Positions 26,987 through 63,629 of a stretch of DNA of 64,000 nucleotides are shown in pieces; the stretch's first letter is position 1, and each line of letters begins with the position of its first letter. The position numbers and the translations under genes are program-made. Below the pieces are notes generated by a model. The model searched no databases and was not told the DNA's origin. It saw nothing but the letters and a program-made list of their open reading frames with translations. The stretch is from Haliotis cracherodii. Lineage: Eukaryota. The stretch spans positions 15,004,001 to 15,068,000 of the forward strand of contig NW_027266264.1 of the NCBI RefSeq assembly GCF_022045235.1. Direction: 5' to 3'.

Positions 26987-28264
26987 ATGGGATTGATGGG
27001 TTTTCGGTTACTGTTGGCAATGCTAACAACAGCTGCAGTTGCTGACGCATATCAACCAAAAGGGAAGGGTTATAGCATTCCACGGGTTCACCCAAAGGGA
27101 TCACATCCAGTTCACCCGAAAGGAAATATCGTCGCACCCGATACTCCTGACTTGAAAGAGCCTTTACTTCCTCAACTTCCACTGTATTTAAACCCAAAGG
27201 GTTCATTTCTCCATGACCGCAGACGTTTAACACCTGTGAACCCGAAAGGAGCTATATTACCTTCAAGACCCTACTTTCCACGTAACGATCTGCGAGGGTC
27301 CTACTTTCCTGCGGCCCCTAAAGGTCAGCTAGAACCACACACTTCATTAGGATTACATCAACCCTTAAATCCTAAAGGTTCACTAGCTCAGCCGACACAA
27401 CCCTTAAATCCTAAAGGTTCACTAGCTCAGCCGACACAACCCTTAAATCCTAAAGGTTCACTAGCTCAGCCGACACAACCCTTGCATCCAAAAGGTACCC
27501 TAGACATGCCGAAATGGAAACAAACTTCATCGACACAGATGAAAAAGTCCTACTCTGCAGAATACAAAAAAGAAACTTGGAACAAAAAGAAAGAAACAAA
27601 TACTGTTTACCCCAATTATCCCTCTGACCCATCGGCCAACAAGCCAACCGTTTCTCCTTGGGACAAGAAGAAGGAAACACACCCTTCCAACCAACACAAT
27701 TCATGGGTCAATAGCAAAACTAACCCCACCAAATCCAATCAACAAACAAATGAACCTTCTGGACAAGTGAAGGATCTTAATAGCCAAGATCAACGTCAAA
27801 ACCCATCTGTAGAACGTGTTAACCCGACTAACCATGGTCAACAAGGAAACAGTATTGATACAATTGGACAAAACACAAACAACCAAGACCAAGGTCTGCC
27901 GCCAAGTCAACCTGGAAGTTGGCAACAGACAAACCCATCCACCAATAACCAGTTCCCTCGTGACACGTGGCAAGTGGTAGACCCATCAACTCAAGGCCAA
28001 AATCCATCTGACCCTTGGCAGACACAAGGTCAGCCTCAAAATCCATCTGACCCTTGGCAGACACAAAACCAACCTGACACGTGGCAAGTGGTAGACCCAA
28101 CAACCCATGGCCAAAATCCATCTGACCCTTGGCAGACACAAGGGCAACCTGACCCATGGCAAGGGGTAGACCCATCAACCCAAGGTCGGCCTCAAAATCC
28201 ATCTGACCCTTGGTCACCAAGTGGTTACCAACAGACCAAATCACCCAATGCAATAGCTGGTTAA
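26987..28264 (+). CDS. Secreted Cys-free Pro/Gln-rich repetitive protein X1 (PKG repeats, C-terminal NPSDPW repeats), 425 aa, single coding exon
   Basis: Splice acceptor TTTCAG at 26977, then ATG at 26987. Signal peptide MGLMGFRLLLAMLTTAAVADA, ten PKG motifs, 39-bp tandem unit QPLNPKGSLAQPT, five DPW motifs. 3'-UTR intron 28297-28488, AATAAA at 28692, conserved paralogue at 46266. Confidence 0.88.
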   Translation: MGLMGFRLLLAMLTTAAVADAYQPKGKGYSIPRVHPKGSHPVHPKGNIVAPDTPDLKEPLLPQLPLYLNPKGSFLHDRRRLTPVNPKGAILPSRPYFPRNDLRGSYFPAAPKGQLEPHTSLGLHQPLNPKGSLAQPTQPLNPKGSLAQPTQPLNPKGSLAQPTQPLHPKGTLDMPKWKQTSSTQMKKSYSAEYKKETWNKKKETNTVYPNYPSDPSANKPTVSPWDKKKETHPSNQHNSWVNSKTNPTKSNQQTNEPSGQVKDLNSQDQRQNPSVERVNPTNHGQQGNSIDTIGQNTNNQDQGLPPSQPGSWQQTNPSTNNQFPRDTWQVVDPSTQGQNPSDPWQTQGQPQNPSDPWQTQNQPDTWQVVDPTTHGQNPSDPWQTQGQPDPWQGVDPSTQGRPQNPSDPWSPSGYQQTKSPNAIAG

Positions 28265-28889
28265 CAAACGTCATGACGGTGCCTCCAATGAAATAAGTAA
28301 GTATATAAGTGAATCTGCAAAAACAGTAAAAGATTCAAATGGCGTAGACGTTTGTTCATGTGTGTATATGGTAATGCCTGAAATATGATGTTTCGCATTT
28401 ACGTTTATTATCGGAACTGTCTTTGTACCAATTAACATTTATATGATTAAGAGTTTATGTATTAACCCATTCTACCATGTTATGACAGGTACAAAGATCC
28501 TCCTTTCCCGTGCTTTTGGTCACAAACTCAGAACAATCGCAGGAACGTACAACAAGAAACTGGTCGATTCAAAGTCTATTCACTTGTGAGATTTCCGCTA
28601 ACAATACACAACATAAGCCGCCCCATTCAACTATATCACTATCTCATCTATGTGTTTCTACAATGAATATAGTTCCGCCGAGATCGAGATGAATAAATGA
28701 AAGAAGTTGTCGTCATTGTTTATGTTTTTGTATGCTTCGGATGTTCCCTTTCGTGACCCTTACAATTCCAGTGCCAAAGTGATATACGCTTTCATTTTCG
28801 TCATGTATTATAACGAATATATGTTAACACCGCTGACAACTGATTTATAGTATTTTAGTGATATCACGGGAGACAGATTGACGAATGAG

Positions 28890-28929
28890 GAAAGCCCGAA
28901 GTCTTAGACGTTTAGGGGTTTAACGTCGC

Positions 28930-28968
<39 letters not shown>

Positions 28969-29230
28969 TGTGTGTGTGCTTGACTGATGCCGAGTTATAG
29001 TGCTAGCCCACTGAGATACCATGACGCAGTTTAACATGATTACCCCACTCAGACACAGTATACTAGCTCCGGACCAAACATTCCTTGTTTTATCGCCTTA
29101 ATGCCGAGTGCAAGACAGGGTAACAACAAATACCATCTTTTAACGTCTTTTGGTATGACACGGCCGGGGATCAAACCCCGGACCTTCCGCTCTCCGGGCG
29201 GACGCTCTACCACAAGATCACAAGACACGG
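28890..29230 (-). mobile_element. Meta-domain-like tRNA SINE (family D) with (GCGT)n tract; partly duplicated inside a family-C SINE at 29500-29925
   Basis: Reverse complement matches 48594-48918; 28890-29130 is repeated almost exactly at 29576-29825. Confidence 0.8.
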
Positions 29231-29613
29231 ATATGGGACTGAGAAACCTAGAAACACAATCAGGGCAAACCAAGATTCCAACCAGCGACCATAGATTGTA
29301 GGGAAAGGGACGCAACATTGTACAGTGAAGTGCGGTACCTTTGACGACTGGACAACCTGTGCCCCCTTGAAACAATAAATCCAGAACTCACAGGTAGACA
29401 GTGACGTAACTCAACTTGTTTTGATATAAAAAATAATAGACACCATTGTGTTTGAAGGCTCATACAAGCTTCATATTCTTACGGAATGTTTCTGTTTGTG
29501 TGAGTGAGTTGGGTTTAACACCGCTTTTAACATTATTCCAGTTATATCACGGCGTGTCAGCTTAATGTAGGAGGGAAGCCCGAAGTCTTAGACGTTTAGG
29601 GGTTTAACGTCGC

Positions 29614-29656
<43 letters not shown>

Positions 29657-30374
29657 TGTGTGCTTGTACTAGTCCGGACTGATGCCGAGTTATAGTGCTA
29701 GCCCACTGAGATACCATGACGCAGTTTAACATGATTACCCCACTCAGACACAATATACTAGCTCCGGACCAAACATTCCTTGTTTTATCGCCTTAATGCC
29801 GAGTGCAAGACAGGGTAACAACAAATGCAGGTCTCAGACGTTTACCACTTCGGTGAAACCTACGAGTACGCGTATGGTGCTGACATACCTAGAAACATAA
29901 ACGACTGAGCCACCCGTGCCCCCATGTCTGGTTGACGTTGACGTTGAATGTTAAGGCCATTACTCATCACACACAGACAGACGTTTTATTCAGTAGTGAA
30001 AACCCACAGTACATTTGAAGTGACAGAATAATGTGTCACATAAAAATAGTTGCAACAAACATACAACTATGTTTTGTATAAAAGTAACACATGTTTTAGA
30101 AACAAAGCTAAAGAGTGGATATGGTTAACATGTTTCGAATTTAGTATATTGATAATTGTCTATTGATATTTGCACATTTTGAAAAGACATTGATTGGTGT
30201 CAGCTTTAAATATAAATATTTTTATCGCTTTGCGCAAATATACATAGAAACAGCATCTCGTCACCAACATTTTATTCAAGACGTACACGAACAAGGAGCA
30301 AATTGTCTCTATGTCTCACATCACTTATAATTAATAATAGAATTACAAACATTCTCGCATTCAGCAGACATGTA

Positions 30375-30605
30375 TAAACGGTTCAACCCCGTCTTTAGAA
30401 ATCCATGCTTGTCGTAAGAGGCGACTAACAGGATCGGATGGTAAGGCTCGCTGACTTGGTTGATGCATGTCCTCGTATCCCGATTGCGTAGATGGATGCT
30501 CATGATGTCAATCCCTGGAATGTCTGGTTCAGGATAATGTTTACAGATCGCCTTCATATAGATGGAATATTGCCGAGTGCGGCGTTAAACGACAAACAAA
30601 CAATT
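30375..30605 (+). mobile_element. SINE (family A)
   Basis: CCATGCTTGTCGTAAGAGGCGACTAAC...GGAATATTGCCGAGTGCGGCGTTAAACGACAAACAAAC. Confidence 0.8.
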
Positions 30606-31322
30606 AATCAAAGCGGCAGAAACGTCAGCACGCTCCTCTATTACTATCATGGCGATATTTTATGCCACAGTATCTAGGTGTCCGGGGTTAGGTAACGTCC
30701 GCTGTAAATATTAAGCTCTCTCCGTATTATTTTTTTGTCTCGATATATAGGAATGCATGGTTATTGCTGAGGACGATATTTACGAGCAGACGAGCATTAC
30801 ACCAAAATACTGATTATATTTATGTAAAGACAGCTCGTCATTGTGACGCGAAGGCCTCGAGTGGTGCTTCACACTCCATATCCTGTGCACTGTACCTTAA
30901 TCACTGTGAAGGCCTTTTTGTGTGACATCTACACCAATTAGTTTGGATTTTTCAATAAAGATTTCCCTTGCTCTGTTATATGATAAAGGTTTAGTACCTT
31001 TGAGTACATTTGTTTGCAACGATTGACTGAAGGAACGTTGTTTCACGATGTTTCAGCAACATTATACTCATGAAGTCATCCTAGAATTTAATATCTGATA
31101 GTCTGATATTCACCACTTCAGAAAATCTGAAAAACAAAAACAAAAGATAAGTGACATTTTTAAAACGTTAAATCTAGTAGAGAGGGAGTAGCAAAGACCT
31201 GTCATACTAAGAGATTACAGCTGGGGTCTCAGACTTGAGAACTAAATCAGGCATATGTCCTGCTCAATCAATAAGGACTTTAAGAACTAAATTGTTCTTC
31301 AGCTTCCAGATGTAGAACACGT

Positions 31323-31915
31323 CAATCTCATTAAAATCAGATCTTAGTTCTCACTATCGCGAAACAAAGATCTGAGGACATCCCATTACGGGTCACGTCA
31401 AAACGACGTTTCATTCGACCATTCAAAGCGTCGCTTACCAGATCATGAAAGTGACAGTCGGAATGTGTTTCTGATCATGCAACCTCGAAAATGTCAACAC
31501 AGGGTATTCCGAACGACAGCAACGGCCCGTACGACTGATTCCGTCAAAATGATCGTCTATCTCTTGCTTCCGTGGGATTTGAACGGAGGAGGCGTTGCAG
31601 AGTACGTGGGAAGCACTGCCATAACAACAATCTCAACAATATATTAGTCATTCCGGAATGTTCGTTTGTTCGGTTTTCAAAATTATAATCGAGAACTGTG
31701 TCAACATATTTTTCAAGCGTAGTCTTAAATGGAAGTTAATTGAAACGAGTGCCGTAAAGCTCGAGAAAGCTGCTTTCTATTTGGCTGATGTCGACTTCCT
31801 ATCAGTCATTTCAGTGGTCTGTCAAAGTTCGCGAAAGGTCGTTCTGACGTGACCCGTATTTGGATGTCCTCAGATCTTTGTTTAGCGGCAGAGAGAACTG
31901 ATTTTAATGAGATTG
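31323..31915. mobile_element. Non-autonomous DNA element (MITE) with ~85-bp terminal inverted repeats and ~10-bp TSD
   Basis: CAATCTCATTAAAATCAG...AAACAAAGATCTGAGGACATCC..TACGGGTCACGTCA is inverted at 31830-31915; flanks are TAGAACACGT and TAGAACATGT. Confidence 0.8.
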
Positions 31916-32068
31916 TAGAACATGTCTGACAGACACCAAATATCATTGATCCCACGGGGTAATCCTAACTGCTAATGCATAACTATCAAATTTGTCAAAC
32001 ACGGATTTCTTGCAACCACCTGCAAATGCAATACTTTCATTTAATTACAAACTATCAGCAACATAATA

Positions 32069-33490
32069 TACTGAACCGCAAAAGAAACGTCACCCCAAGT
32101 AACATTGCATGAAAAGTTGTCATTTAAATATCTGGGTAATTTTTGTCAAAGTTTCTAAAATTTATTATTACCTTGTCCAGAAAAATGAAATTTTATGAAA
32201 AAACCCCAAAGTAGATGACAAAAAAACGATCGCCCAAACGCATTACGGCAACGGCCATGGTAACCCGTGCAAATTGAAATGCACATCCGTTCCCCCATTT
32301 CTTGCCCTATAAAATCCACCCAGATCGGATAACATTCATTCGTTATGGAATTGCTACCACATGCCAAGATTGACAAGAAATCAGCGACACCAAGCCCTTG
32401 GACGATTGCAAGCTGGACAAACCACCCGGCAAGTAGCCAATGCATTTCAAGTCCACGTAAGGACCATATACAGGCTCCAGCAACGGTACCAGACCACCAA
32501 CACTACAGATGACCGAACACGTAGTAGAAGACCCAGGGTCACCACCCGACGTCAGGATCGTAAGATTGTGCGACAGCATCTTCAAGATCGCTTTGTTACT
32601 GCTGTGGAAACTGCTCGACAGACCATTGGGACCCACCAGCGACACATTAGTGCGGACACTGTGCGTCGACGATTGACGAGCAGACACCTCCACCTCTCAC
32701 ACCACGTCATCGCCGGGACCGTATTCAGTGGGCAACACAACACCAGCAATGCATATGGCGCCACCAGCAGTGGAGAAGAAGAGTCTCAACAGTAGATGGC
32801 AGAGAGAGAGTCTGGAGACGCCGTGGAGAAACACTATTCGCATGCTTGTGTAGTTGAGAGAGACTCGTGGGGTGGTCCGAGCATCATGGTGTGGGGTGGA
32901 ATTGGTCTTGCACAGAGGGTCGGCCCTGTGGTCTTCCAGAACATTAGTCCAGGGGGAGGTAATGGTGTCACAGTAGCTCAGTACATTGATCAAGTCTTGA
33001 GACCAAACGCCATACCTCATTTGGCACGTCGCAACCACGAGTTTCAGCATGATAACGCCCATGCCCACACTGCGAGAGCCACAAGAGACTTCCTCCAGCG
33101 GAATGGCATCAGAACCATGCAGTGGCCTGCCCTCAGTCCCGATTTAAATCCCACTGAGCACCTGTGGGACGAGATTCAAAGACGGCTGAATGACGTCCGA
33201 CCAAAGCCAACACCTACAGCTGAACTGCGTCAGGCGTTCCTCAGAGTGTGGGCTCAAGTGCCTATGGCCATCATCAACCGCCTCATCCATTCAATGTATT
33301 GACGTTGCACTGCAGTCATCAATGCACATGGCGGACACACGAGATACTGGCTTGTGATGCCATTTTCTCAGGGACTAATGTTTTGTTTCACTTTAAGAAC
33401 ATATGACACTTTAATTTCAACCTTGATAATCAGTTTCATCGTTTTACTTTGTCTCAAAGTATGTTTACAGTGTTTGGACAAATAAGGTTT

Positions 33491-33561
<71 letters not shown>

Positions 33562-33592
33562 TGCATGGTGACGTTCCTTTTGCGGTTCAGTA
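32069..33592 (+). mobile_element. Tc1/mariner (DD34E) transposon, defective transposase (32361-~33350)
   Basis: 26-bp TIRs TACTGAACCGCAAAAG(A/G)AACGTCACC with TA flanks. HTH MPRLTRNQRHQALGRLQAG, then SIMVWGGI, FQHDNA and WPALSPDLNPTEHLW. First catalytic region deleted; (TA)n at 33494-33558. Confidence 0.93.
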
Positions 33593-34119
33593 TATTTGAA
33601 CCTTTCAGCATCAAGAGAGAAATCCAGAACAAAGCTTATTGCCACCTAGGCACTACTAAAGTAATACTAGCCTTTGTCGTCACCAAATACATATAGGGGA
33701 CAACCCAGTTGTCATGCCATGACGGTGTTAGAACATCTGCTTATTCTGTGCCAGGGCACCAAGATCTGGAATTGAATCTGCCCAGCTTAGCATTAGGCTA
33801 GCATATCTATCAACAGTGTGTGGATCTCACTTCTGATTTAACAACTTGAAGACAACATCAGTAACAATCCATTCATCAGAATCTCCAAATTTACTTAACG
33901 CATCTGCTCTGAACGTGGAATCCAGTTAAACTTTATCCTTATGTCAGACACCCTAGCCATCCTGGACATTGGCATAGCAAGATACTGTAAAGATAAATTG
34001 AAACTACTAAAAGGAGCGATTTGACAGCAAGCCTTGCTCTGATCTGAGAACCACTTTACAGTGTGAATATACAAAACCTCTCTGTAAACGATACAGTTGT
34101 GTCGCATGAGACACTGGAT

Positions 34120-35515
34120 AGAACTGATGATGAGCCTAACCAGCCTGACTCTGCTAGGATCCCCCAAACCCTCTTTGATGCATTTCTTATCTTAATTTGT
34201 CGATAATAACAATAATAATAATCTTTCTGATCCCTTGTATATTTTGTTTATGCCATCAAATCTGCGATTTACCGATTGAGAAAAAGGTCAATAAAACAAA
34301 TTAACCAATCATTTCCACAGAATCAACTTAATAAATGAAACGACATTATTTCTGTTACTCTCAATGCGGACTGTTCTTTGCATGACATTACCTGTTGCGT
34401 GTATGCTGCTGCTCGAACACTGGAGGAACTCCATACAGTTTCCAAAGAAAATGAACCACAAAAAGGTAATAAACAAAAACATTAAACGAAAAACCGGTTT
34501 CAAATTAAACTGAATGAAACGAGGAAAGATGTTTCCTGGATAGAACGCTTAAAACTGCGTTCTTCAGGACAATCTATGTCAAAACGCCAGTGATCAATTT
34601 TGGGGGAAAATAAAAACAAAACACAAGACAACAAAGGAGAAAATTCTCAATCAAATTTCATAAAACAAAATAAATTGTTCAAATCAAATGAAAAAACAAT
34701 TTTACAGGTAATTACATGCAACCAATGAAAGAGATGAGAAAAGACCCACCGTGGATTCCTGTGAAAGGTTTTTGAAACAGTTGTGGTCTATACTCGGCAA
34801 CTGTAACCTCGAGGAACCATGGGTAGGGGATTACAATAAAGTTTACACGACAAAATAAGGTCAACATTGGTGTATTACACCTGACTGTCTGAAAAATGTA
34901 CTTAAAAAGTCCAAATCTAATACGGCGCCAGGGCCTGACGGTATTCGAAACCGGTATTGGAAACTGTTCCAATGTGTCCCTACGCCATTACTTATTACAT
35001 TATTTTAATTATCTTGTGGATACAGGGGGTGTTCCGCCTTGGTTGTGCAAAGGGCGAACAATACTTCTACCACAAAAGGGTATCTGACTGACACTGCAAA
35101 CGTCCTCCGCCGAATTACTCGTTTGAACATACAGTACAAAATATTTAAAGGGTGTCTTACAGATCTCGTGTCATCGTACTGCGCTTCCAATGACATTATC
35201 TACATGGAACATCCCAAGTACCGTGTAGAGGGGGCAAGGGCCCCGAGCTGATGATGCTAACAAGCATGTCTGTGCCAGGATCACCAAACCCTCTTTGCTG
35301 CATTTTGTATTTTTATCTGTTCTTAATGATAATAACACTGCAAATATGCAGACCTCGCTTATGAAATGTTACGCTTGTATCCCAAGTACCGTGTAGATGG
35401 GGGAAGGATCCTGAGCCGATGATGAGCCTAACTAGCCTGCCTGTTCTTGGATCACCCAAACCCTCTTTGCTGCAGTTTTTATTTTAATCTGTACTTCATA
35501 ATTATAACAACAGTT
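34120..35515 (+). mobile_element. Fragments of an R4/Dong-like (RLE-type) non-LTR retrotransposon: RT remnants and three copies of its 3' end
   Basis: PPWLCKGRTILLPQKG and RRITRLNIQYKIFKGCL remnants. A 3' module GATGATG..CTAAC.AGC.TG...CAAACCCTCTTTG.TGCA.TTT followed by TAA-rich sequence occurs at ~34127, 35250 and 35418, and ends the minus copy at ~58650-58750. Confidence 0.7.
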
Positions 35516-36871
35516 GTGAGTGAGTTTCAGTTATGATCAAGTCTGCAGTCCTTGGAGTTATCTGCTTTTAACCTAGAGGCTCTTCAGAAGAAATGTTGAG
35601 TAAGCCAATATCAAAATTGGTTAATATATGCAGCCCTTGGAGTCAACATGTATTAATAACGGATATTGTAGCAGCCCTTGCAATAATCCACTATTAACCA
35701 AGAGATACGTTAGCAATCCTTAAAGTTAATCGCTATTAACCAAGAGGTAATTTAGCAGTACTAAAATGGGACTCTTTAGCAGCCATGAGAGAATGCCATT
35801 ATTAGTTAAAGGATCCATCAGCAGTACTTGAAATAAAACAAACTCTGCTAAAAGCACAACGATTGTACGATTCCGACTATATCATAGGCATGTGTTCACA
35901 AATCACCGGCGAAACGGTGAGCGTATCTTGTCCCATCGGTGGCACCAGTCACAAACACATGCAAATGCAAGTCAATACTCACCTGTAAAAACACAGGAAA
36001 ATTTAGTACAAGTCAGAATAGGGATTTGCATCGGATATCATTTTAGTCGAATTAGGAAATGTCCCCCATATGTCAACCTCACAACTTTTTAAAAGCCTTA
36101 CGGAGACCTTGAATGACGTCAACAAATTTGAGCAAGCGTCGTACGAAGCTCCTTGTACTCTTCGTAGAAAGAGCATGGACGATTGTACAACACAAATTGT
36201 GAATTGTAACCACCAAAGGCTGGTGCTGCTGGAATATTGCACGATATAAAGGGAAAGTTGACTATTAGAAAGTTTAAGTCATCCCTCTTGTCATACAGTC
36301 TTGTGGAGAGTATTTTGTCACTCTGAATCTTTATGCATATACCTAAATATTAAACAGATGCGGCGGTTTTACTGGTAAAATTATTTCAGTGCAGCTGGGT
36401 TCAGTGGAAGGGAATTCAGTTTCATCCAAGGAGTAGTTCAACAGTCCTTGATGATGGAATCCTCGACATAAATTGTTCACTGAATTACTGAAGTACAGAA
36501 CAGAGAACCCGAAACTTGCAGAACAGTGCAACAACTTTGGATGGCATATTTTACTAAATAAATTGTTCGCTTATTTCTTTCTTAATTTGGTTCTAGTTTT
36601 CGAAAGAATGGAGCGCCTATACTAGCAAATACAACTGAAACATTTTGATACAGATTGCTTCGGGCGGTTATGGCAAGGTAACTGCCATTGGCTAAAGAAC
36701 AGCAAACTTCAGTTGGCTTTTTCGATTGAATAACATATAATGTAAGAAATCCTTATCCACCCAATAGGATTTTGGAAATAGACTCAAAGCAGTGTTGACA
36801 CTACTCACTACAGTCTCACGGGATTGTAAAACAAAAGAATCAATAAGTACTGATTACAAAACCCACCGCCA

Positions 36872-37068
36872 TATAAATAGCCAAAACCGACACTTCGTGG
36901 AGTATGGTTGTGGAAATTACTACACCTCATCTATCAAGATATGTCAGGTGTCGACCATGTATGACATATGTTTTCCGTGTCCAGATTAACTTTGACAAGC
37001 CAACGTCCAACTATCATTACATTCTTCATGTGGATATCAGTCGGATCACCAGATGTACAAAGGTAAGT
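36872..37068 (+). promoter_or_regulatory. Putative TATA promoter and non-coding first exon (copy 1)
   Basis: TATAAA at 36872 and a perfect AAG|GTAAGT donor at 37063, both retained in the paralogous block at 49645-49832. Confidence 0.45.
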
Positions 37069-39479
37069 AATTACTGAAACTAACTTGAAATAATGCTGAA
37101 CAACATGTCTACATGACTGATTTCCGTTGACATTAACAGAGATAACGTCAGTTAATTACCTGTGGAAAGTGGAGAAAAGGGTTAAAAGGTCTTTTATCAG
37201 GTAATATTTCCTTTCATTGGTTATTTGATAGGGTGCATATATGAACGTAGGAGCTGTAAATGATGTCTAAAAAAATGGACTGAAGCAGGTCAACAGCTTG
37301 TTCTTGAAAGCTGATTGACATGTGAATATGTGTTTCACATTTCAAAATGTTAAAAGCTTGCTAAATAAGATTCATACAATGAATAAAATGACCATTAAGT
37401 CTGAACATTTTAAAATTCACAATCTTCTGAAAATCATAATAAACAGATCGTCAATATCCATATAAGTTAAGAAGTTGAAGATACCGCCTGATGGATAAAG
37501 GGTAGGGGAATACAGGTTTGTAAATAATGCATTTGCATCATGACATGAGGGGTGACACTAAAGTACAATGTAGGATTGAAAACGCAATATATACTTGATG
37601 TAATCACATTGGTATTATATTATGTCTAATTTATATTTAGATATATCTTTCTGCACTTAGGTCTAGCTTCGTGACAGTTTAGTATCAATGCCAGTATGTC
37701 TAATGATTGGTTAACTGCTGGAATAAAATCATTTTTCTTCAAGTTTTACAAAAATACAAATGTCGTTCACTGCATATGGATGATGCTCTTACAGTTAGTA
37801 TGTTGTGGGAACAGTCATCGTTGATTGAAAAAAATATCTCAAACAAACATCCCACTAACTGTCAATGCTTAATTATTTCCATCTTTTAAAGTCTCTCTCG
37901 ATAGAAACCTCACAACACCGATAAAATAACACTTTTACTATCAAGCACTGGGCTCATGTCCAGATAAACGAGGAGGGAGAGAGGAGGCATGTAAAAATGT
38001 TACATGTATTTCTTTTAACTGAGGTTAGAGGGTGTCAGCGAAATATGATACAGTTCAAAGGTCAATCCCACCGGCCCTTCCACCTCTATAATAAATTACC
38101 AGTCCATTTCAAATCGCGATTCGCAAATTGCTTCCCGTAGTCGCGACAGGATCCGCTGATCGGGGATTCTACTCGCAGATTTGTACAATGTTGATCCTTT
38201 GTTTGGCAGCACAAAACTCGAAGCTGGCTCACACGCCGTGATGTAAGACTTGGTATCTGCATGTGTATCGGCTTAAACTATAACCCCAAGGAACCTTGCT
38301 TGCAGGGATCGATATAGCCTTATGAAACATTAAAAAGGGCAATCTAATATTTATGTCTACATGCACCAAGTACATGTAAAAAAATGGATTTGTGTCTGAC
38401 TATCCCTTTAGGTTCCAAACAAAATTGACCTTTGAACACACTCAATACCTCTAAAGTTTATTTATCATTTATAAATAATCCATGTGTTAATTTGTTATGC
38501 TTCATGTGGGTACTTCAAGATAATGTTCACATGTTCCAATCACGTTTTACAAAATTGCGTCATTAATTTATGTGACACTGGCAGCAGACCAGCCAATGTT
38601 CAACTTTGCTAAATTTATGGGACCAAGGTGCAACCTGGTTGTTTTTTGGGGGCGTATCCTGCTTATCAGATCAACATGCAACTAGTGTTTTAACTAGGGT
38701 GTGTGCAAGTCGCTCTCTGGATCATCGACGTCTCAAACAAATGGGAACAAGTGTGGTTGACGGTAAGAGGCTGTAGAGGAAATATCGATATCACTTTTCT
38801 GCAGTGCGATCTACAAACTTCGCCCCTTTCCTTAGGGGCCGGTCATGTTCATTGTGGTCTTCATTGGTTCATGCTTTGTATTTATTTACCAAAATCGCAA
38901 GATCATTATTTTAACACGGATGACAAGGAAGAATCTATCTAGTCCATGAATTAGTTTTCCATAATTTAACTTGACATCTTGGCCACGCAAGACAACCGTC
39001 AACTTTCCTCGGGGTCCTTTCATTTCAACATTTACACATACCATTTCACAGATAGACATGTGATCAAAGCACCTTTCCTGAAAGGCTAAAGATTATTTTG
39101 AAGTTAATTTGCGACTTAACTTTGTTATATCACCTGTAAGTGGCAACAGGAAGGTAATCGAAAATGTATATGGTTGCAATTGTGAGTTGCACAACTCGTC
39201 CTGACTAAGGTTCCAGGTTTGTCAGTACCAGTGGGTTTCACAAAAGTGGAATACTTCTTAGACCTGCATCACCTCGGGCTTTCACTCCAAATCAAGCATA
39301 CACGCCGTGATAACCAGTATAAATAAAATACTGTTCAAATCAGATATTGCCAAACTCAAGCATAGGTTGAGTATGATGACTGTACCAAATGTTCAGAAAC
39401 TGTGAAATATTTACATTCCATCTTACCAAGCATTGTTCTGATGTTTATCCGTGTTTGTTTTATAACTTTTTCAAGACTC

Positions 39480-40200
39480 TATTAAGTCAAGAATCTACAG
39501 TTGAATTATTAGATTTTGATCGTCAAGGGAATGACTTTGTTAATTACCACAATTGTGATGCAGGTGATTATTACCTGCTAAATATGGTGTTATCGGAGAT
39601 AACTGATGCAGAGATTACCAAACTGAAGATATGAAGAATGGGAAAGCACCGGGGGCAGATGGCATTCCTGCAGAATTCCTGGAGGTGATTCCTAGAATTC
39701 GACATTTCTTTATTGCTCTATATCTAAAACTCCTATTTAAAAAACATTCTGGGTCATGGAGTTTTTCCCGCAGCAAGGGATATTTGTATGATGTTACCTT
39801 TGTTTAAATTAGGTAGTAAAGCTGATCCTAATATTTACCGTGGAAAATCCCTATTAATCCCTGGAAAATTGTTCACTGCTATTACTGAAAGGAGACTAAG
39901 AACATGGATTGAATCAAATGACCTATTATCAGAGTCACAAGCTGGTTTCCGAGCACAGTATTCCACAACAGACAACGTATTCACTTTACACGCATTATGC
40001 AGTAAATATCTGTGCTGACAAATAGAACGTTTCATTTGTGCTTTTATAGATTTTTAAAAAGTATTTGACCTTGTATCAAGAAAAAGTTTTTTATACTTAT
40101 TGTTACAGAAAGGATTTCATGGAGGGTTTCACAGTATTCTTAAAAACATGTACGGCCACGTTAAATATTGTTTGAAAATTGATATTGAGATAACCCCATA
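39480..40200 (+). mobile_element. Degenerate L2/CR1-like LINE RT fragment (paralogue of 19620-20500)
   Basis: KAPGADGIPAEFL, LPLFKLGSKADPNIYRGKSLL and LSESQAGFRAQYSTTDNVFTL. Confidence 0.82.
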
Positions 40201-46200: not shown

Positions 46201-46265
46201 TCTATAAATTTTAACATTATGTACGACAACAAACCATTCCTTGTTTGTAATTTCAGTTCGTGAAA

Positions 46266-48490: not shown

Positions 48491-48593
48491 ATACGTTATT
48501 GTGAGTGAGTTTCAGTTACGATCATATCTGCAGTTCAGTTATCTCCCATTAACCAAGAGGTTATTCAACAGCAGGAGTACGCCATTATCAAGA

Positions 48594-49644: not shown

Positions 49645-49832
49645 TATAAATCACCACTTCGTGGAGGACGGTTGTGGAACTCACTACATCTCATCTATCA
49701 AGATATGTCAGGTGTCGACCATGTGTGACATATGTTTTACGTGTCCAGATTGACTTGGACAAATCAACGTCCAAATGCCATTACCTTCTTCAGGAGGATA
49801 TCATTTGGATCACCAAGTATACAAAGGTAAGT
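49645..49832 (+). promoter_or_regulatory. Putative TATA promoter and non-coding first exon (copy 2), probably of the 840-aa gene
   Basis: TATAAA at 49645, AAG|GTAAGT donor at 49827; the next coding-exon acceptor downstream is at 52534. Confidence 0.45.
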
Positions 49833-50342
49833 AATTAGTTAAGCTAACTTGAAATAATGCCGAACAACATGTCTACTTAACTATTTTCCTTTGACATCGA
49901 CAGAGACATCAATGAATTACCTGTAGAAAGTGGGGAAATTTGTCAAAAGGGTTTATTAACTAATATTTCCCTTCAATTGATGGCTGATTGACATGTGTAT
50001 TTCACATTCCAAAGTTTTAAAGACTTGCCTCAATAGAATCATACGATGAATAAAGTGACCATGCATTACTAAACATTTTCAAGTTTACAATTTTCTGAAA
50101 AACATAACAGTTAGACAATTTTCATTTTAAGAGTTGAAGACAACGCCTGATTGATATAGGGTAGGGGAATACAGGTTTGTAAGGAAATATTTACATCATG
50201 ACATTGAAGTACAATGTAGCTATAGGTTTGAAAACAAGAAATATACTTGATGTAATCGTATTATTTGTGTAAAAACTATGTGATTATTTATATTCAACAT
50301 ATATCTAACTGCACTTAGGTCTCGTTTCGTGACAGTATTGTA

Positions 50343-51873
50343 AACTGACGTCCAAAAGAAACTTTACCAACTGAAAATATTAATTTCAGACAAAGTATAA
50401 TTTTTTTTTCGATGAAGTCTATCTAAAACACATAACCTAAATACAACAATAGTGTATGCAGAAATGTTAATCTTAATGTTAATCTTCTGTTACATGTTTG
50501 CGAGATAACACGCGAAAAAGTGAAAAAAACACGTGCACCACGGACAACTGCAAATGTAGGTGCGGGTAAGGGTATAAAACGATTGCAACGGCAAGTCAGA
50601 CATCCACAGTGATAAAAAAACACAAAAGAAATGCCACGAGTAACAGTCGAACAACGTGAACGAGCCTTGGGTATGGTACAGATGGGAGCCACCCATGCCC
50701 ATATTGCACGAACCTTCGGTTGCTCCCGTGTTGCCGTTACCAACTTGATGCAACGTTGCAGACAGACGGGCGGACCACTGACAGGCCAAGAACAGGCAGA
50801 CCCAGGGCGACCACGCCCCATGATGACCGGTACTTGCGTACCTTGCACCTCCGAAATCGCTTCCTGACAGTGACGTCATCGGCGACAAATGACTTAGGTC
50901 ACAGGGTTAGTCGACACAGTGGCCAGGAGACTCAGGGCTCATGGAATCAGGGATTTTAGACCATACAGAGGACAGCTATTGACAGCGCAACATTGTCGTC
51001 TGCGATGGAGATGGGCCCGGACTGTACGACGTTGGCAACGACGTGACTGGCAGATGATTGTCTTCACTGACGAAAGTCGATTCTGTATGTTTAGAGCTGA
51101 TGGAAGACAACGTGTTTACCGCCGAACGGGTGAACGAACGGCGGCATGTTGCGTGCAAGAGGTCGTACTATATGGTGGAGGGAGTGTCATGGTGTGAGGA
51201 GGGATCTGTGGGCAGGAGAGGACACCGCTGGTCATCGTTGACGGAAACTTGACAGCTCAGCGGTACATGGATAACATTCTTCGTCCAGTTGTCCTACCAT
51301 TTCTCCAACAGCAGCCACGTGGTGTCATTTATCAGCATGACAACGCTAGAGCCCATACAGCCAGAATTGTCACTAACTTCCTCGCAGCCAACAACGTCAA
51401 CGTCCTGCCGTGGCCTGCACGCTCACCCGACATGTCCCCAATAGAATACCTCTGGGATTTGATGGATTGTCGTATTCGACAACGACCACACTCTCCAGCC
51501 AACCGACAATAACAGATCTTGTCCCTCCAAGACAAATGGCGTCAAATCCCACGTGACCTCATCAGATGTCTGACTTTTTCTGTGCGTCGAAGAGTTTTGC
51601 GTGTATTGAGGCATTTGGTGGTGACACACGCTACTAATGACTTGTTATTGAACGTGAGCGATTGTTTATGTACTCTGCCTATTGTCCATGATTCTGAAAG
51701 CTCGAGTTTTGTACTACACCCAACTTTGGAGGGGCTTTGACGTTATTTTCAGTGTTGATTATGTAGATATATTGATCTTCTCAATACACTTTACTTCATG
51801 CATGTATGGGTTTTTTTTGTTTTTGAGCAAGAGTGATTTCAAACTCTGGTAAAGTTTCTTATGGACGTCATTT
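50343..51873 (+). mobile_element. Tc1/mariner (DD34E) transposon, frameshifted transposase (50631-~51635)
   Basis: TIRs AACTGACGTCCAAAAGAAACTTTACCA and inverse at 51847-51873 with TA TSD. Motifs MPRVTVEQRERALGM, IVFTDESRF, YQHDNARAH and WPARSPDMSPIEYLW. Absent from duplication copy 1. Confidence 0.93.
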
Positions 51874-52539
51874 TATATTAAATGATTGGTTAAATATGCT
51901 TCAGAACTATTTGAAAAGTATGGATGAAATTACATATTATAGTCCTCTCCATTTTACATAGAACACGAAATAACGCGATTATTGAACAAGTCATTCCGGC
52001 TCTAAGGAAGACTTACTTACAGTAATGACAAATCTTGCACAGTGCGTGTTCAAGTAATATCCATTTTGCTGGTAATAAACATCATCATACAATTTGGATC
52101 TCGTGGGTACAATCCGAGTACGGTCAAAAGCGCTTTTAATACTATATGTGCATGTTTTTCCTATAATTCGTGCTAGTACGTACAACGCGTATGTGTGTGT
52201 GTGCGTGCGTATTTTTGCCTTTTCTTAGGTTGTATTTGCGTAAGATGTAAATTATGTAGTAAACGTGTTTTCACATTTCAGAAATGCTAATGCACCTTCT
52301 CAATATTTTAAACTACCTAATTTATAGCCCACGAAGTACAGAGTCCATCCCAGTTTAGAGGATGTTGGGGTGACTGGATAGGGATGTTTCAGAAGACTGT
52401 GTTGCATTATCTTTCTTCGTTTTTAAATTAATTGTTCACACCATTCCAAAACAATCGATATTGGTACCAAATTCAGGTGTATTTAAAATAGCTTTCCCAA
52501 TTAATATGGTATTTGTACATTTCTTTAATTTCAGCCGAG

Positions 52540-55062
52540 ATGAGCAGAACGGTAAACCGTTTCCTCTTCCTTGCAGTACTGGTTTCGAGTGCCTGTGCAA
52601 CACGAATCGTTACTCTGCCTAAAGGAGTATTATTTCGGACTGGGACAACTGGAAATGGTAAAATGATGGCATTACCCACCGTAGGACCAATACATCAAGA
52701 CCACCTAGCTCCAATTCAAAGAGCTGGAGACGCTGTTCCTTTTACTCCGACTGGATCAATGATGGTATCACCAAGCAGAGAATCACATGTGGTAAGGACA
52801 GGAGGTACAGGGGCAGTTTCTTCTATCCCCTCCCAGTCTCCTTTACCAACATATTCTACTGGCGCCATTCAACCAATGACTGCAGTACCTACCACAATGA
52901 GTTTCTCTCAGTTATTTGCCTCTCAACATACTGCCACCATACCGTCTTTCTTTCATCCAGCTGCAAGTGGTTCATTTCAACCAAGACTATTTCAGCCTCC
53001 TGTAACAGGTCCGTATAAACCACCTGTCTTCCCACCACCTGTAACCGTTTCGTTTCATCCAACATTCTTTCAACCATCAGTACCTGGTTCGATTCAACCA
53101 GCGGCCTTCAAACAACCTGCGTCCGGTTCTTTTCAACCAGATTTTTTTCCATCTGTATTTGGTTCCTTTCACCCAACCATCTACCAACCAGCAGTACCTG
53201 GCGCATTGCAACTAGCTACTCAACCAACCGGGACTGGCTTGTTTCAACCATTTACTGAACCAAATACAACCCCAAACATGTTCCAGCCTGTGGCTCCGGC
53301 ACTAACCTTCAGTGGATCGTTACCTCAAACCAGTATGTGGCCCTGGAATCCTGCAACAAATCTACCTCTATCAACTGTCACTGGAATCGAGTTTCCGAAA
53401 CAAACGCTTCTGACGAGCCTTAATCCACGCACTGGACGACTAGATATGACCCAACAACTCAGCCTATTCCCCCAACCGATCAAGATGGATCAGTTTCAAC
53501 TGCAACATCCATATGTCCTGCTGCAACCAATGAACTCAGTACAAAATATTCAGACCAAGCTAACAAATCCTACCAAACAGCTAATCCCACCTGAACCTAG
53601 TTTTCCCCTAACCACAGCTGATCCATTTAAACCGAAAATCCCATCTGATCCAACATTGACAGTAGTCAATGCAACAGCAATTACCCCTTCTAACCCTGTA
53701 CATACTTCTTTAACTAACCCATTTCAACCTGACACTGTATTAATCAATTCGTTGCAAACACAGACCCAACTTGGTCAAGTGCAACCAATTAACCCAAACG
53801 ACAAAGGTCATACAAGACTAACATCTGACCCCAGGCCGACAATGAACACACCAAATCCTAGTAAACCGCAGGCCCCACTTGACCGTGTAATGCCCTCCCC
53901 CACAGAAAGTCAGTTTCAGCCAGCAAACCCGCCTTACCAAGGCTTGACGACGGTCAAAGAAGGCCAATTGCAATCCCAAACTACAAATGGCCAAACAGGA
54001 ACTGTTCAACCAAAAACTACACTTGACGGTAATGTGCAAATGACACCATTCGACCCAGTGTACGCACAAACCAAATCAGATTCTGTGCCACCAATAAGTC
54101 AGGATCATATCTCATCTGATCCATTATTGTCACACAACGCTATAGACCTTAGTCATCCGCCAAGCCCATCTCTCAAGGGGAAACCTATAATGCAAGAAAA
54201 CAAAATTCCGTTGCCAGGTTTATCTGACTATAAGCAAAGTATGACTACCGTGGACAGTTTGATACATCAGACCACGTTAAATCAAATTGAGCCGTTACAA
54301 CCTCAATTCCATTCTGACCCATTATTACATCTAACTAAGGCATCCCCAAGTCAACTACAAGAGGCATCAGGGCGTCTGCAGCCTAGTTCTTCAAAAGAAG
54401 GTCAGTCGCAAATCATTTCTGATTCCAGACAGATGTTGACTACAAATCAGCTTCAACCACAAAACCCTTTTGATAGTTTGTCTGGCATGTCCATAGCGGA
54501 CCCAAGTCTACCCCAAAGTCCATCTGATTCAATCATGTCCATACCCCCATTAAATCAACTTCAACGGCTAGACCCATCTGACCCCTGGTTGACTATCACA
54601 TATGAAGCACAAAATCCAGCAAAACGCAAGCAACAGCTCAATTATTTGTACCCTACGCTCCCTGTGACCAATTTAGAACCACTAAAACCTATTAACACAT
54701 CTGACCCTGGGCCACTAGCAACCCTGGCAGGACCACACCAGCCATCAAACATGTCTGACACGTCTTCATCTATGAACTCAATCAACCAAGCTCTTGCGCA
54801 AAACGCATCTGAACCTGGATCAAATATGACTACATTTAACACACAAGATCGCCTTTCACCTGTGCCAGACTTGACTATAACATATCCGAGCCAAGTACAA
54901 AACCCGTCAGCACCTACGAACTCGAACAATCCACAAATCCCCGGTGACTGGTTAACTGCACTTAATAGACATACACATAACCAAACACCACAATCTTGGA
55001 CCAATCAAATACCAACTACACACTCTAACGCTCCACAAGGAATCCAGAGCGGCCCTGTATAG
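52540..55062 (+). CDS. Secreted Pro/Thr/Ser/Gln-rich (mucin-like/RLCD) protein Y, 840 aa, single coding exon
   Basis: Acceptor TTTCAG at 52534, ATG at 52540, signal peptide MSRTVNRFLFLAVLVSSACA. 2.5-kb stop-free frame with ~13-aa FQP/GSFQP repeats and many SDP motifs. 3'-UTR intron 55072-55380, AATAAA at 55478 and 55491. Confidence 0.9.
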   Translation: MSRTVNRFLFLAVLVSSACATRIVTLPKGVLFRTGTTGNGKMMALPTVGPIHQDHLAPIQRAGDAVPFTPTGSMMVSPSRESHVVRTGGTGAVSSIPSQSPLPTYSTGAIQPMTAVPTTMSFSQLFASQHTATIPSFFHPAASGSFQPRLFQPPVTGPYKPPVFPPPVTVSFHPTFFQPSVPGSIQPAAFKQPASGSFQPDFFPSVFGSFHPTIYQPAVPGALQLATQPTGTGLFQPFTEPNTTPNMFQPVAPALTFSGSLPQTSMWPWNPATNLPLSTVTGIEFPKQTLLTSLNPRTGRLDMTQQLSLFPQPIKMDQFQLQHPYVLLQPMNSVQNIQTKLTNPTKQLIPPEPSFPLTTADPFKPKIPSDPTLTVVNATAITPSNPVHTSLTNPFQPDTVLINSLQTQTQLGQVQPINPNDKGHTRLTSDPRPTMNTPNPSKPQAPLDRVMPSPTESQFQPANPPYQGLTTVKEGQLQSQTTNGQTGTVQPKTTLDGNVQMTPFDPVYAQTKSDSVPPISQDHISSDPLLSHNAIDLSHPPSPSLKGKPIMQENKIPLPGLSDYKQSMTTVDSLIHQTTLNQIEPLQPQFHSDPLLHLTKASPSQLQEASGRLQPSSSKEGQSQIISDSRQMLTTNQLQPQNPFDSLSGMSIADPSLPQSPSDSIMSIPPLNQLQRLDPSDPWLTITYEAQNPAKRKQQLNYLYPTLPVTNLEPLKPINTSDPGPLATLAGPHQPSNMSDTSSSMNSINQALAQNASEPGSNMTTFNTQDRLSPVPDLTITYPSQVQNPSAPTNSNNPQIPGDWLTALNRHTHNQTPQSWTNQIPTTHSNAPQGIQSGPV

Positions 55063-57560: not shown

Positions 57561-58639
57561 TCATAAGAAATAGAGGGGGCGGTCTCATTTTTCTCTTGTA
57601 CTTCTAGTTCACGTTGGTAAATCAGTGCATGGGAATGAGCTATATGACCATTGACGACACCAATATATCCTTATTCTTATCTGAAAGGTCCTATCCCCAA
57701 ATTTAACTTAGATGTTATCTATGATTTGGTTGGTTGGTTTGTTGTTTTACGCCGCACTCAGCAATTTTCCAGCTATATGACGGCGGTCGCCTTTTAAAGC
57801 AAGCATGGTTTGCTGAAGACCTATTCTTCCCCGGATCTTTACGGCGAATTCAAGTTTGAAAAAACTGTTTTAGTGTGAAAAAACTATTTTAGGGTCTCAA
57901 TGAAATGGTTTGTATATAACTGAACAGGTTTAGTGTTTATTTCTGTTTTCTCATTGTGAGGTAAGGCGTGAATGCATCTCATAATACAACGCATCAGTAT
58001 CAAAGTACAAGCAAATTAGGAAAGAAGCAGGATACATTTGGCCAAAAGCAAAAAATAATTCCCCTACTTTTGATGTAGTATCATGCCTTGAGGGTCAAAT
58101 ACCAGGACCCTATTTACTGTATGTATCTATTGTAATGTAGAAATGACAGATATATTGAACACTTTGTCTTAAAGTAGGCAATCGTTTATTGCCATATAGT
58201 GAAAAGTTTTTGCTTACTATGTCGTTTCCTGATGTGACATTACCTTTTCAATCATGCCTTGGGCTACAAAGTGCTCACACAATAACGCAAGTTTATGATA
58301 AATTCAACGTATTTAATCATCATGAATCATGTTAGCACATAACAACTGTCACACACACACATTTTTCCAAAGGGAAGACTGACGTAAGGTAAGGTTTACT
58401 GCTGAGTGTACTTTATTAAGTATTCTTTACGTTGTTATTTAGAACAGTACTGGAGAAACCTTTCTCAGGTGATTCTCCTACTCTTTTGAACTCACTAGCT
58501 CTCTTCATCATATCTTCAAATAGCTCTGACACCTTCCGTTCTTCTTTAGAGATTAACCTCTTCGGAGAAGCATATTTGCAATAGACTCCTCACAGCGCCG
58601 CTGTGCAGCTTTTTAAGGTGAAAGTCAAGCGCTAGATAA

Positions 58640-62090: not shown

Positions 62091-62348
62091 GAATTGAATA
62101 CATTGAAATTTATAATACCACATTATCAGAGGATTTAGACACGATGAACAAAAGCTGATAACAGAAGATTATTGTCAGATCATGTTTCTGCCACGTTGTA
62201 ACTTAATTGTTCAGTGAGTTGAGAGTTTAAAGTCGCTTTCGTAAATAACCTATCACTGAAATCAATTTATCGATTTCAGAACTTTTATCAAGCTGAACCA
62301 GTCCTTTACCAAAAGCCTTTTTTTCCGTTTTAGGACAAACATTTCACA

Positions 62349-63629
62349 ATGGGTCCTCTCCTCTTTATGTGGCTCTTTCTGATGACGTTGTTGCCATGCC
62401 CCATGACCATGTTTCATGCAACTGATCAACAAATAAACTGCACATTTTGCGCTCCCCTTCCACCTCAGGAATGGTTAAGCATTGAGGACAACAGGGGACT
62501 GATGAGAAGCAACACCTTACAAAGACAAACTCAATGGGTTCAATATGTAAACAGAGCCAACCAGAAACCCCGAAATGTGCACCGTCAAACTGGATTTATA
62601 AGAGGAACAGAAATACCGAGAGTCCAGAAGAGACCCTTTGTTACCAATGGGAAATTTGTTTCCAGATTGGTCAACCCATCGCGTCCTGTGTCCAATGGCA
62701 TCGTAAATAGTATCACAAATCCAGGGAATCGTTTTAGTTTTAGAAACCAAGCCCGATCTAGAGCTCAAAAGAAGGCAGTGCCAAAAAATATTCTAAACCG
62801 AATTTCAGATCTTATCAATCCCCGCAGAAGACAGTCAATACATTCTCAGCCACCAAACCTTCGAGGTATTCAACGCAAGACCAAATCCCAAAACATCCGA
62901 AACTCAATTTCAGATCTTATCAATCCCCGCAGAAGACAGTCAAGACCTTCTCAGCCACCATACCTTCGAGGTATTCAACGCAAGACCAAATCCCAAAACA
63001 TCCGAAACTCAATTTCAGATCTTATCAATCCCCGCAGAAGACAGTCAAGACCTTCTCAGCCACCATACCTTCGAGGTATTCAACGCAAGACCAAATCCCA
63101 AAACATCCGAAACTCAATTTCAGATCTTATCAATCCCCGAAGAAGACAGTCAAGACCTTCTCAGCCACCAAACCTTCGTGGTATTCAACACAAGACCGAA
63201 TCTAAACACAATCGAAATTCAATTTCAAATCGTGCTAATCAACACAGAGGGCAGTCGATGCCTTCTCTGCCAGGATACGTTCGTGGTATTCAACGCAAAA
63301 CCGAGTCCAATAACATCCGACAACCAATTCCAAATCGTGCTAATCCACGCAGAAGACAGTCAAGACCTTCTCAACCAGCATACCTCCGTAGTATTCAACG
63401 CAAGACTAAGTCCAAAAACACCCTAAAGCCAATATCAGATCGTGCTTATCCACACAGAGAAGAGTCGATGCCTCCTCTGCCAGGATACGTTCGTGATATA
63501 CAAAGTATGTCCGTATCCCCAAACAACCGAAACTCAATTTCAGACCTGTACAATCCACGACTGGGACATATAAGACCCCAAACAGGGCATCCTCATACAA
63601 GTCAGCCCACAGCAGCTTTACCTTGGTGA
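62349..63629 (+). CDS. Secreted Arg-rich protein Z with ~7.4 tandem 35-aa repeats, 426 aa
   Basis: Polypyrimidine acceptor TTTTAG at 62333, ATG in ACAATGG context, hydrophobic N-terminus MGPLLFMWLFLMTLLP, CTFC motif, 105-bp repeat NIRNSISDLINPRRRQSRPSQPPYLRGIQRKTKSQ. Candidate donors at 63626 or 63691. Confidence 0.85.
   Translation: MGPLLFMWLFLMTLLPCPMTMFHATDQQINCTFCAPLPPQEWLSIEDNRGLMRSNTLQRQTQWVQYVNRANQKPRNVHRQTGFIRGTEIPRVQKRPFVTNGKFVSRLVNPSRPVSNGIVNSITNPGNRFSFRNQARSRAQKKAVPKNILNRISDLINPRRRQSIHSQPPNLRGIQRKTKSQNIRNSISDLINPRRRQSRPSQPPYLRGIQRKTKSQNIRNSISDLINPRRRQSRPSQPPYLRGIQRKTKSQNIRNSISDLINPRRRQSRPSQPPNLRGIQHKTESKHNRNSISNRANQHRGQSMPSLPGYVRGIQRKTESNNIRQPIPNRANPRRRQSRPSQPAYLRSIQRKTKSKNTLKPISDRAYPHREESMPPLPGYVRDIQSMSVSPNNRNSISDLYNPRLGHIRPQTGHPHTSQPTAALPW

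Follow-up and report, generated by a model that had tools for sequence, protein, structure and literature searches.

The question raised by this locus is whether neighbouring genes for secreted, repetitive proteins are controlled together and yield a single extracellular material. The locus lies in a 64,000-nucleotide stretch of the Haliotis cracherodii genome (contig NW_027266264.1 of assembly GCF_022045235.1, positions 15,004,001 to 15,068,000, forward strand), hereafter the window, numbered from its first letter. It consists of four genes designated X1, X2, Y and Z, which a preliminary description of the sequence had taken for one co-regulated set. The reading that we lean towards is that the four are disordered, predicted-secreted proteins with a structural part in an epithelial secretion, such as mucus or an unmineralised organic layer, and that X2 is likely to be expressed from a copy of the Y promoter.

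Translation of the window in six frames gave four long open reading frames (ORFs) on the + strand, with the ends and orientation that the preliminary description had assigned to them, and the cluster extends over 26987..63629 from the start codon of X1 to the stop codon of Z. The longest ATG-initiated ORF in shuffled versions of the window (n=30) encoded 169 amino acids. An AG splice acceptor lies 5-15 nt upstream of the start codon in all four genes and a GTAAGT donor 10-62 nt past the stop codon of each, which indicates one coding exon per gene, flanked by non-coding exons. The coding exons and the elements of the 3' untranslated region (UTR) are the following.

26987..28264, + strand: X1 coding exon, 425 amino acids; the acceptor AG ends at 26977; H. 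rufescens orthologue XP_046378408
28297..28488, + strand: X1 3' UTR intron (GT..AG); splicing at the corresponding X junction was seen in three probable RNA runs (X2 stretch)
28692, + strand: X1 polyadenylation signal
46266..47117, + strand: X2 coding exon, 283 amino acids; the exon starts at 46257, with the 3' UTR donor at 47158 and the polyadenylation signal at 47533
52540..55062, + strand: Y coding exon, 840 amino acids; signal peptide, Phe-rich repeats and a long Pro/Thr/Ser/Gln chain
55072-55380, + strand: predicted Y 3' UTR intron, followed by polyadenylation signals at 55478-55550
62349..63629, + strand: Z coding exon, 426 amino acids; weaker signal peptide, CxxC, Arg-rich unique part and repeats

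Signal peptides were called by a heuristic combining hydropathy with the (-3,-1) cleavage-site rule, not by SignalP. A clear n/h/c pattern was obtained for X1, X2 and Y and a weaker one for Z, the N-terminus of which has no basic n-region and a heuristic cleavage site solely at residue 31; the signal-peptide-like N-termini of the preliminary description are therefore upheld for three of the proteins and in a weaker form for the fourth. A stricter hydropathy cut-off (2.3) was passed by 9 of the 97 ATG-initiated ORFs of the window, a number that includes the four genes, and was missed by X1 and X2 themselves (2.14). The near-absence of Cys noted earlier was confirmed by counting: X1 and X2 have none, Y has one (within the signal) and Z has three (one within the signal and two in a CxxC at residues 31-34). 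This CxxC (62439-62450), just past the predicted signal peptide, holds the only Cys of any mature chain and could link Z chains or bind metal. Net charges of the mature chains are +11 (X1), +13 (X2), -1 (Y) and +63 (Z), and Tyr makes up 1.3-3.5% of the four proteins, so that neither Cys nor Tyr is rich enough for cross-linking. The absence of a globular domain, also part of the preliminary description, agrees with a Pfam scan of all four proteins, in which no family reached the curated cut-off, and with Protein Data Bank searches with Z and with an X alignment, which returned no significant match. AlphaFold models of X1 and Z had a mean predicted local distance difference test score of 37 and 48, respectively, which is weak evidence of disorder because the underlying alignments were shallow or empty; both models place a helix across the N-terminal hydrophobic stretch, and the Z repeats carry short helices.

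The compositions attributed to the proteins beforehand held in most respects. In X1 a signal peptide (predicted cut after A21) is followed by a basic half with PKG repeats (10 PKG) and by a Gln/Asn/Asp/Trp half with PSDPW motifs, which holds 9 of the 12 Trp. The division into a basic PKG half and a Gln/Asp/Trp half thus stands by composition; acidity of the second half is only slight in X1 (-8 over 195 residues) and lacking in X2 (+1, neutral). Y conforms to the mucin-like Pro/Thr/Ser/Gln chain with Phe-rich repeats that had been described: Pro accounts for 14.5% and Ser plus Thr for 21.6% of its residues (181 Ser/Thr), no Cys follows the signal, and F[QH]P repeats at residues 111-270 hold 20 of the 35 Phe. 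Z is indeed a strongly cationic protein of 35-residue repeats (net +63, isoelectric point 12, 60 Arg), with 7 to 8 units encoded by an array of 105 nt x 7.2 at 62801-63556.

Orthologues are present in H. rufescens for X1 (XP_046378408, 91% identity over aligned columns), X2 (XP_046378422, 93%) and Y (XP_046378434, 93%). Named protein matches came from Haliotis only (3 of 2703 candidates for X1, 2 of 8000 scored for Y), and Z had no protein relative among 552 candidates and one spurious match among 1.84 billion representatives, in searches that were length-limited and ran against a database in which the share of molluscs may be small or large. A match of Z to an acidic ant repeat protein (21% identity) was judged spurious. 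These results are in line with the lineage-specific set proposed earlier, and all four are best described as Haliotis lineage-restricted low-complexity proteins that are probably secreted; for synteny across species, protein models were the sole basis. No deep homology linking X, Y and Z was recovered (best BLASTP E-value 0.005, X1-Y): the X and Y coding exons did not align as DNA and the proteins align barely, UTRs and intron ends gave no alignment between genes apart from X1-X2, and the word PSDPWL common to X2 and Y reached p 0.035-0.04 in one of five pairs, which is not significant after correction. A literature search on the four accessions found no paper (subscription journals and some supplements were outside its scope), and no match was found in the supplements of PMC12070547.

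X2 is a paralogue of X1 (78% identity) and is identical to residues 38-320 of the H. cracherodii protein XP_071098157. Over 268 codons the two differ with a nonsynonymous rate (dN) of 0.10 and a synonymous rate (dS) of 0.19 (dN/dS 0.52, bootstrap 95% confidence interval 0.35-0.82), the ratio being lowest right after the signal peptide (0.10 over residues 22-46). At 46646-46648 X2 lacks about 58 codons relative to the H. rufescens orthologue and to a contig of RNA run X1; this gap is an in-frame deletion of this lineage or allele. Protein identity between H. cracherodii and H. rufescens is 91-93%, against about 92% expected under neutral drift at 3.6% DNA divergence. As judged from the sequences, frame and composition are kept and residues and repeat numbers drift, as in low-complexity proteins.

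In both Haliotis species the Y models of RefSeq start at Met247 and have no signal peptide, and residues 247-840 of Y are identical to an NCBI model. The 246 codons that these models omit (52540-53277) encode the signal peptide and the Phe-rich repeats; P0006, an orthologous Y, has them intact, and one probable RNA run covers part of them. The P0006 orthologue is a full-length Y of 840 amino acids that includes the signal peptide (92% identity), so the RefSeq models are likely truncated. Under neutral simulation (400 runs) the Y frame survived in 1-5% of cases at 3.6-5.4% DNA divergence, values borrowed from other records, and in P0006 all 840 codons are open.

Transcription was assessed in 4 of the 18 listed runs, which were chosen for containing Y and mapped over 44101-64000 only, with X1 and the 37-kb leader outside. 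Runs X1, X4 and X6 were guessed to be RNA (none is recorded as such) and run X12 is DNA-like; depth in a unique intron bin was 0, 0 and 0.96 in the former and 8.8 in the latter. Contig depth was unable to rank the genes, and low cover was not counted as evidence. The X 3' UTR junction 47160>47390 was spliced in all three probable RNA runs; DNA run X12 has no such listing, although some of its joints went uncounted. Two variants of the X junction together with an X1-type repeat joint in run X4 suggest that both X paralogues are transcribed, and in an X2-type contig the alignment breaks off at the acceptor, leaving 200 letters at the 5' end unaligned. Y was covered in each of the three probable RNA runs, in run X1 including the signal-coding end. 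Cover of Z amounted to a single listed contig of 315 nt in run X6, along with single-copy depth in a DNA run of another organism. Depths in the three probable RNA runs were 0, 0 and 1.3 for the Z 5' bin and 0.74, 0 and 3.5 for the Y leader bin. Expression of the cluster, on which the idea of a common set depended, is accordingly backed by probable RNA runs for X, which is spliced, and for Y. X1, X2 and Y are very probably real secreted-protein genes.

The standing of Z needs to be weighed separately. Z has no NCBI model and no protein relative, the other two + frames of its region are likewise open (147 and 209 codons), and dN/dS among the repeats is 0.8 in the Z frame versus 0.86 and 1.03 in the remaining frames, all of which would suit a non-functional frame kept open by the 105-nt tandem repeat, with a cluster of only X1, X2 and Y. 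On the other side, ahead of the array and in frame with it are about 140 codons outside the repeats, beginning with a hydrophobic N-terminus, Z has a polypyrimidine-AG acceptor 15 nt before its ATG and a donor 62 nt past its stop like X and Y, stops across the seven repeat units number 0 in the Z frame versus 1 and 7 in the others, and one run X6 contig covers Z at 63119-63439. A spurious frame is therefore hardly probable, and Z is in all likelihood a real secreted-protein gene, held with slightly less assurance than the other three. Z, and perhaps X, might alternatively be a precursor from which cleavage at basic sites releases defence peptides, cationic and Pro/Arg-rich, or signalling peptides. 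The Z repeats are Arg/Pro-rich with RRR and RK sites and the nearest Atlas neighbours are apidaecin-like and semenogelin clusters; their scores (0.76-0.81), however, fall in the range reached by shuffled proteins, repeats that have diverged no longer have the basic sites (RRR having become HRG or HRE, and RK having become HK or SM), no Gly-Lys-Arg amidation signal lies ahead of them, and an RxxR site is absent from X1. We regard processing into peptides as very unlikely. The Atlas neighbours (scores 0.75-0.81, also attained by shuffled proteins) were rejected as relatives.

With the genes in place, their regulation can be addressed from the non-coding sequence around them, the relevant elements of which are listed below.

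16342..16454, + strand: candidate X1 first exon, with TATA at 16342 and donor at 16455, the sole TATA-preceded donor in 15950-19372
19372..37715, + strand: duplication unit A, holding part of X intron 1, the X1 exons, a spacer, a copy of the Y promoter and first exon, and the start of the intron
36305..37684, + strand: X2 promoter and first exon (TATA 36872, exon to 37062, donor 37063), a copy of the pre-Y unit
39119..51895, + strand: duplication unit B, holding part of X intron 1, the X2 exons, a spacer, the Y promoter and first exon, and part of Y intron 1
49043..50342, + strand: putative Y promoter and first exon (TATA 49645, exon to 49826, donor 49827)
50344..51872, + strand: decayed Tc1/mariner-type transposon with terminal inverted repeats, in Y intron 1 and absent from unit A
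58310..58388, + strand: candidate Z first exon, TATA-like 58310, donor 58389

Eighteen colinear blocks link units A and B, with 7014 nt aligned at 71-85% identity (19372-37684 versus 39119-50342), and a short match extends to about 37715, beyond the transposon later inserted in unit B; transposase-like fragments were recognised by eye in this element, and its flanks rejoin unit A sequence. Divergence is similar in the X coding exons (dS 0.19), the X introns (0.15-0.22) and the two leaders (0.14-0.23), as one duplication event predicts, and the duplication appears to be older than the split of H. cracherodii and H. rufescens.

The RefSeq models of X2 in two species (XP_071098157, XP_046378422) splice 36961-37062 over 9.2 kb to 46257. 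The 1.4 kb around this first exon is 76% identical to 49043-50342, the exon itself 87%, with TATA box and donor conserved, and the alignment of the X2 leader with the pre-Y unit scored 850, whereas shuffled controls from other regions reached no more than 55. Since the annotated first exon of X2 is thus a copy of the TATA-exon-donor unit that precedes Y, X2 likely runs on the promoter of Y. The donor of the putative Y leader is the only AAG/GTAAGT with a TATA box among 10 GT[AG]AG sites between X2 and Y. A leader that is a young high-copy repeat was ruled out by its depth of 8.0 in the DNA run, which is that of a single copy.

The proposed history starts from an ancestral order X, Y, Z, in which the leader would have been located between X and Y and was most simply that of Y. 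A tandem duplication with its ends in 5' introns, one in X and one in Y, would have copied the X coding exon together with the promoter and non-coding first exon of Y, and the first promoter copy would then splice to the second X exon to give X2, tying its expression to that of Y. We consider it likely that X2 is such a chimera of Y promoter and X reading frame. The shared regulation claimed in the preliminary description is accordingly retained for X2 and Y, with their homologous promoter and first exon, and finds no support for X1 and Z: no homologue of the leader was found ahead of either by blastn, nhmmer or local alignment, and neither the candidate X1 nor the candidate Z first exon is homologous to the X2/Y leader. 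A repeat found upstream of both the X2 leader and the Z candidate exon was discarded as a shared promoter, as it lies in high-depth bins. Within the leaders (36904-37053 and 49705-49775), both copies retain upstream frames of 7 and 10 codons, and an in-frame upstream ATG in the X2 leader would put 37 extra residues before the signal peptide.

Several observations weigh against the account given so far. The splice from the 49.7-kb leader to the Y coding exon is a predicted one, the RefSeq Y begins after the signal peptide in both species, and the first exon of X1 itself is known as a candidate. The overlap of the X2-type contig ends at 46256, where the leader in the window (ending AAG) predicts 46255, so that the species concerned has a substitution or another first exon, and one run X6 contig continues unspliced from 45365 into X2, as pre-mRNA or a nearer start would. 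The leaders contain seven (X2) and four (Y) upstream ATGs, which is odd for abundant secreted proteins. Identity between species near the neutral expectation implies that most residues are weakly constrained, and the dN/dS of 0.8 among the Z repeats adds to this. Finally, the functional part draws on composition, with secretion and glycosylation being predictions.

As to function, a structural role in a secretion is suggested by the signal peptides, the disorder and the repeats. The signal peptide would direct each chain into the secretory pathway, where Y, with its 181 Ser/Thr, would likely be O-glycosylated to a mucin-like chain. For the basic stretches of X, and for Z most of all, the expected partners would be polyanions (sulfated glycans, for instance) and not the other chains of the cluster, and cationic chains binding acidic glycans in mucus or an organic coat are more likely than mutual binding. 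Carboxylate and sulfate groups can be stained in glands of the limpet foot, which also has a mucus protein containing Arg-rich repeats (PMC7333891).

Mutual binding was the core of the preliminary description, which had the four genes co-regulated and their products co-assembling via cation-pi contacts or complex coacervation. The co-orientation and common layout of the genes, the leader common to X2 and Y, and the cover of X and Y in the same three runs (picked for containing Y) speak for such a set, and the supply of aromatic and cationic residues is ample (60 Arg in Z, 12 Trp in X1, 35 Phe in Y). Complex coacervation among the four nevertheless lacks a polyanionic partner: with the net charges given above the set contains no polyanion, its most acidic segment having -0.04 per residue. 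Ser-x-Glu is a kinase motif, and the 0-2 such motifs per chain make phosphorylation unlikely to supply negative charge. Four chains without a polyanion make mutual complex coacervation unlikely without modification; X1 and Z also lack the shared leader, and neither Cys nor Tyr (1.3-3.5%) is abundant enough for cross-linking. Cation-pi contacts of Z Arg with X Trp or Y Phe are possible on these compositions. Taken as a whole, co-regulation of all four with co-assembly is improbable, and one coacervate material formed by all four proteins still more so. An equally improbable elaboration is an operon-like biomaterial unit, in which promoter capture would put X2 in the cells of Y and the Arg repeats of Z would condense with X Trp motifs and glycosylated Phe-rich Y into a salt-tolerant coat or glue free of Cys and dihydroxyphenylalanine (DOPA).

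The preliminary description had also pointed to the shell matrix, and on that view nacre or the prismatic layer would hold the four proteins in occluded form. Repeats occur in about 30% of shell matrix proteins (PMC4897951), and H. asinina has Has-vm2, a Pro-rich secreted repeat protein expressed at the mantle edge (PMC2034539, seen in excerpt). The nacre and prism proteome supplements of H. laevigata (greenlip abalone; PMC6003135), however, yielded no protein or peptide match in the passages shown, and the composition of X, Y and Z is neither Asp-rich nor Gly/Ala-rich. That search used exact short motifs in 12, 24 and then all 27 files, not every match being displayed, and concerned a different species, with periostracum and larval shell not covered. 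The accessible portion of the H. asinina shell protein table (PMC2989941) has no entry by comparable sequence. Each of the four proteins would give 10-20 tryptic peptides of 7-35 residues, and proteomics under-detects repetitive low-complexity proteins according to a cited review, available in part. On balance a shell-matrix role is unlikely, and a structural role in mucus or an unmineralised layer is preferred.

Other features of the window lie outside the cluster or between its genes. A head-to-head pair of paralogues (6533-10963 on the - strand and 11801-15550 on the + strand) has N-terminal PB1 exons (40-53% identical; PF00564, E-value 5.8e-08 for 10067-10198), after which come low-complexity exons rich in Arg, Gly and Cys, the 679-codon frame at 6533-8572 being one of them; a 154-base N gap occupies 10242-10395. 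We take this pair to resemble sequestosome-1-like adaptors. Besides the copy in Y intron 1 (50344-51872), decayed Tc1/mariner-type elements occur at 32313-33302 (HTH and DDE_3 Pfam matches) and 61098-61595 (weak DDE_3), and a non-LTR (long terminal repeat) retroelement fragment with a weak zf-RVT match is present as two inverted copies, 87% identical, at 47873-48450 and 58931-59501. Tandem arrays were found at 3929-4798 (40 nt x 22), 8816-9222 (30 nt x 13.5) and 2435-2878 (185 nt x 2.4), the first two yielding long open frames without obvious gene features.

The analysis provides corrected gene models for an endangered abalone, with a full-length Y including its signal peptide and added models of X1 and Z, the exact sequences of which are absent from the protein collection. 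It also offers a testable case of lineage-specific secreted genes gaining shared regulation: where a non-coding first exon precedes a single coding exon, promoters are swapped, and the protein is left unharmed, by a duplication whose ends fall in introns. If the proteins did form a material together, a step as yet without direct support, they would represent new chemistry for wet coatings.

Compared with known systems, this kind of gene appears ordinary for molluscs, and X1, X2, Y and Z are, by their sequences, new members of the molluscan repetitive low-complexity secretome. Proteins bearing repetitive low-complexity domains (RLCDs) occur commonly in lineage-restricted mollusc secretomes (PMC4897951, PMC5400390, both available in part); the accessible part of the PMC5400390 supplement lists identifiers, which makes a blank motif search of it uninformative. 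Like them, the four proteins have a signal peptide, here predicted by the heuristic and weaker in Z, a repetitive, compositionally biased and probably disordered chain without recognised globular domain, a lineage-restricted range, and repeat numbers that vary between species. Unlike typical RLCD proteins, which are Gly/Ala-rich or acidic and come from mantle or shell, they are Pro/Gln/Ser/Thr- or Arg-rich and known from the genes described here. Has-vm2 of H. asinina (319 amino acids, signal peptide, 20 Pro-rich motifs, mantle edge; excerpts of PMC2034539) is similar in being abalone-specific and secreted, with Pro-rich repeats and basic residues; it was not among the X1 or Z matches and is likened by description.

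RefSeq names XP_071098157 (X2) and XP_046378408, XP_046378422 and XP_046378434 (the H. rufescens orthologues of X1, X2 and Y) "sporozoite surface protein 2-like". Plasmodium sporozoite surface protein 2 has vWA and thrombospondin domains; the name is an automatic label, and no Pfam domain was found in X1, X2 or Y. Searches with this label and Haliotis found no paper, and "sporozoite surface protein" with abalone gave one barnacle paper. Y shares the long Pro/Thr/Ser chain of gel-forming mucins and lacks their Cys-rich vWD, C8 and cystine-knot domains, the mature protein having no Cys and no Pfam match. Sandcastle worm glue is a complex-coacervate adhesive of a polycation and a polyanion, and the oppositely charged partner of such a glue has no counterpart here, given net charges of +11, +13, -1 and +63 and few Ser-x-Glu motifs. 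Limpet pedal mucus has one protein with Arg-rich repeats and another with Ser-Pro-Thr-Thr repeats (PMC7333891, in the sections available), and mucins and limpet mucus proteins carry Cys-rich vWD, C8, EGF or protease domains, whereas Y has none.

For the leader of X2, the closest parallel is that of human GTF2IP1 and GTF2IP4, which use the promoter and first exon of the adjacent GATSL2 (PMC6169893, available in part). X2 likewise is a 5'-truncated duplicate predicted to be transcribed from a neighbour's duplicated first exon, the exon being homologous to that of Y and lying within a colinear duplication with intronic ends. Unlike the human duplicates, X2 has its whole reading frame in one exon, so that the chimera keeps an intact protein and only its regulation would change. 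Promoter capture by partial duplication is an already known kind of event.

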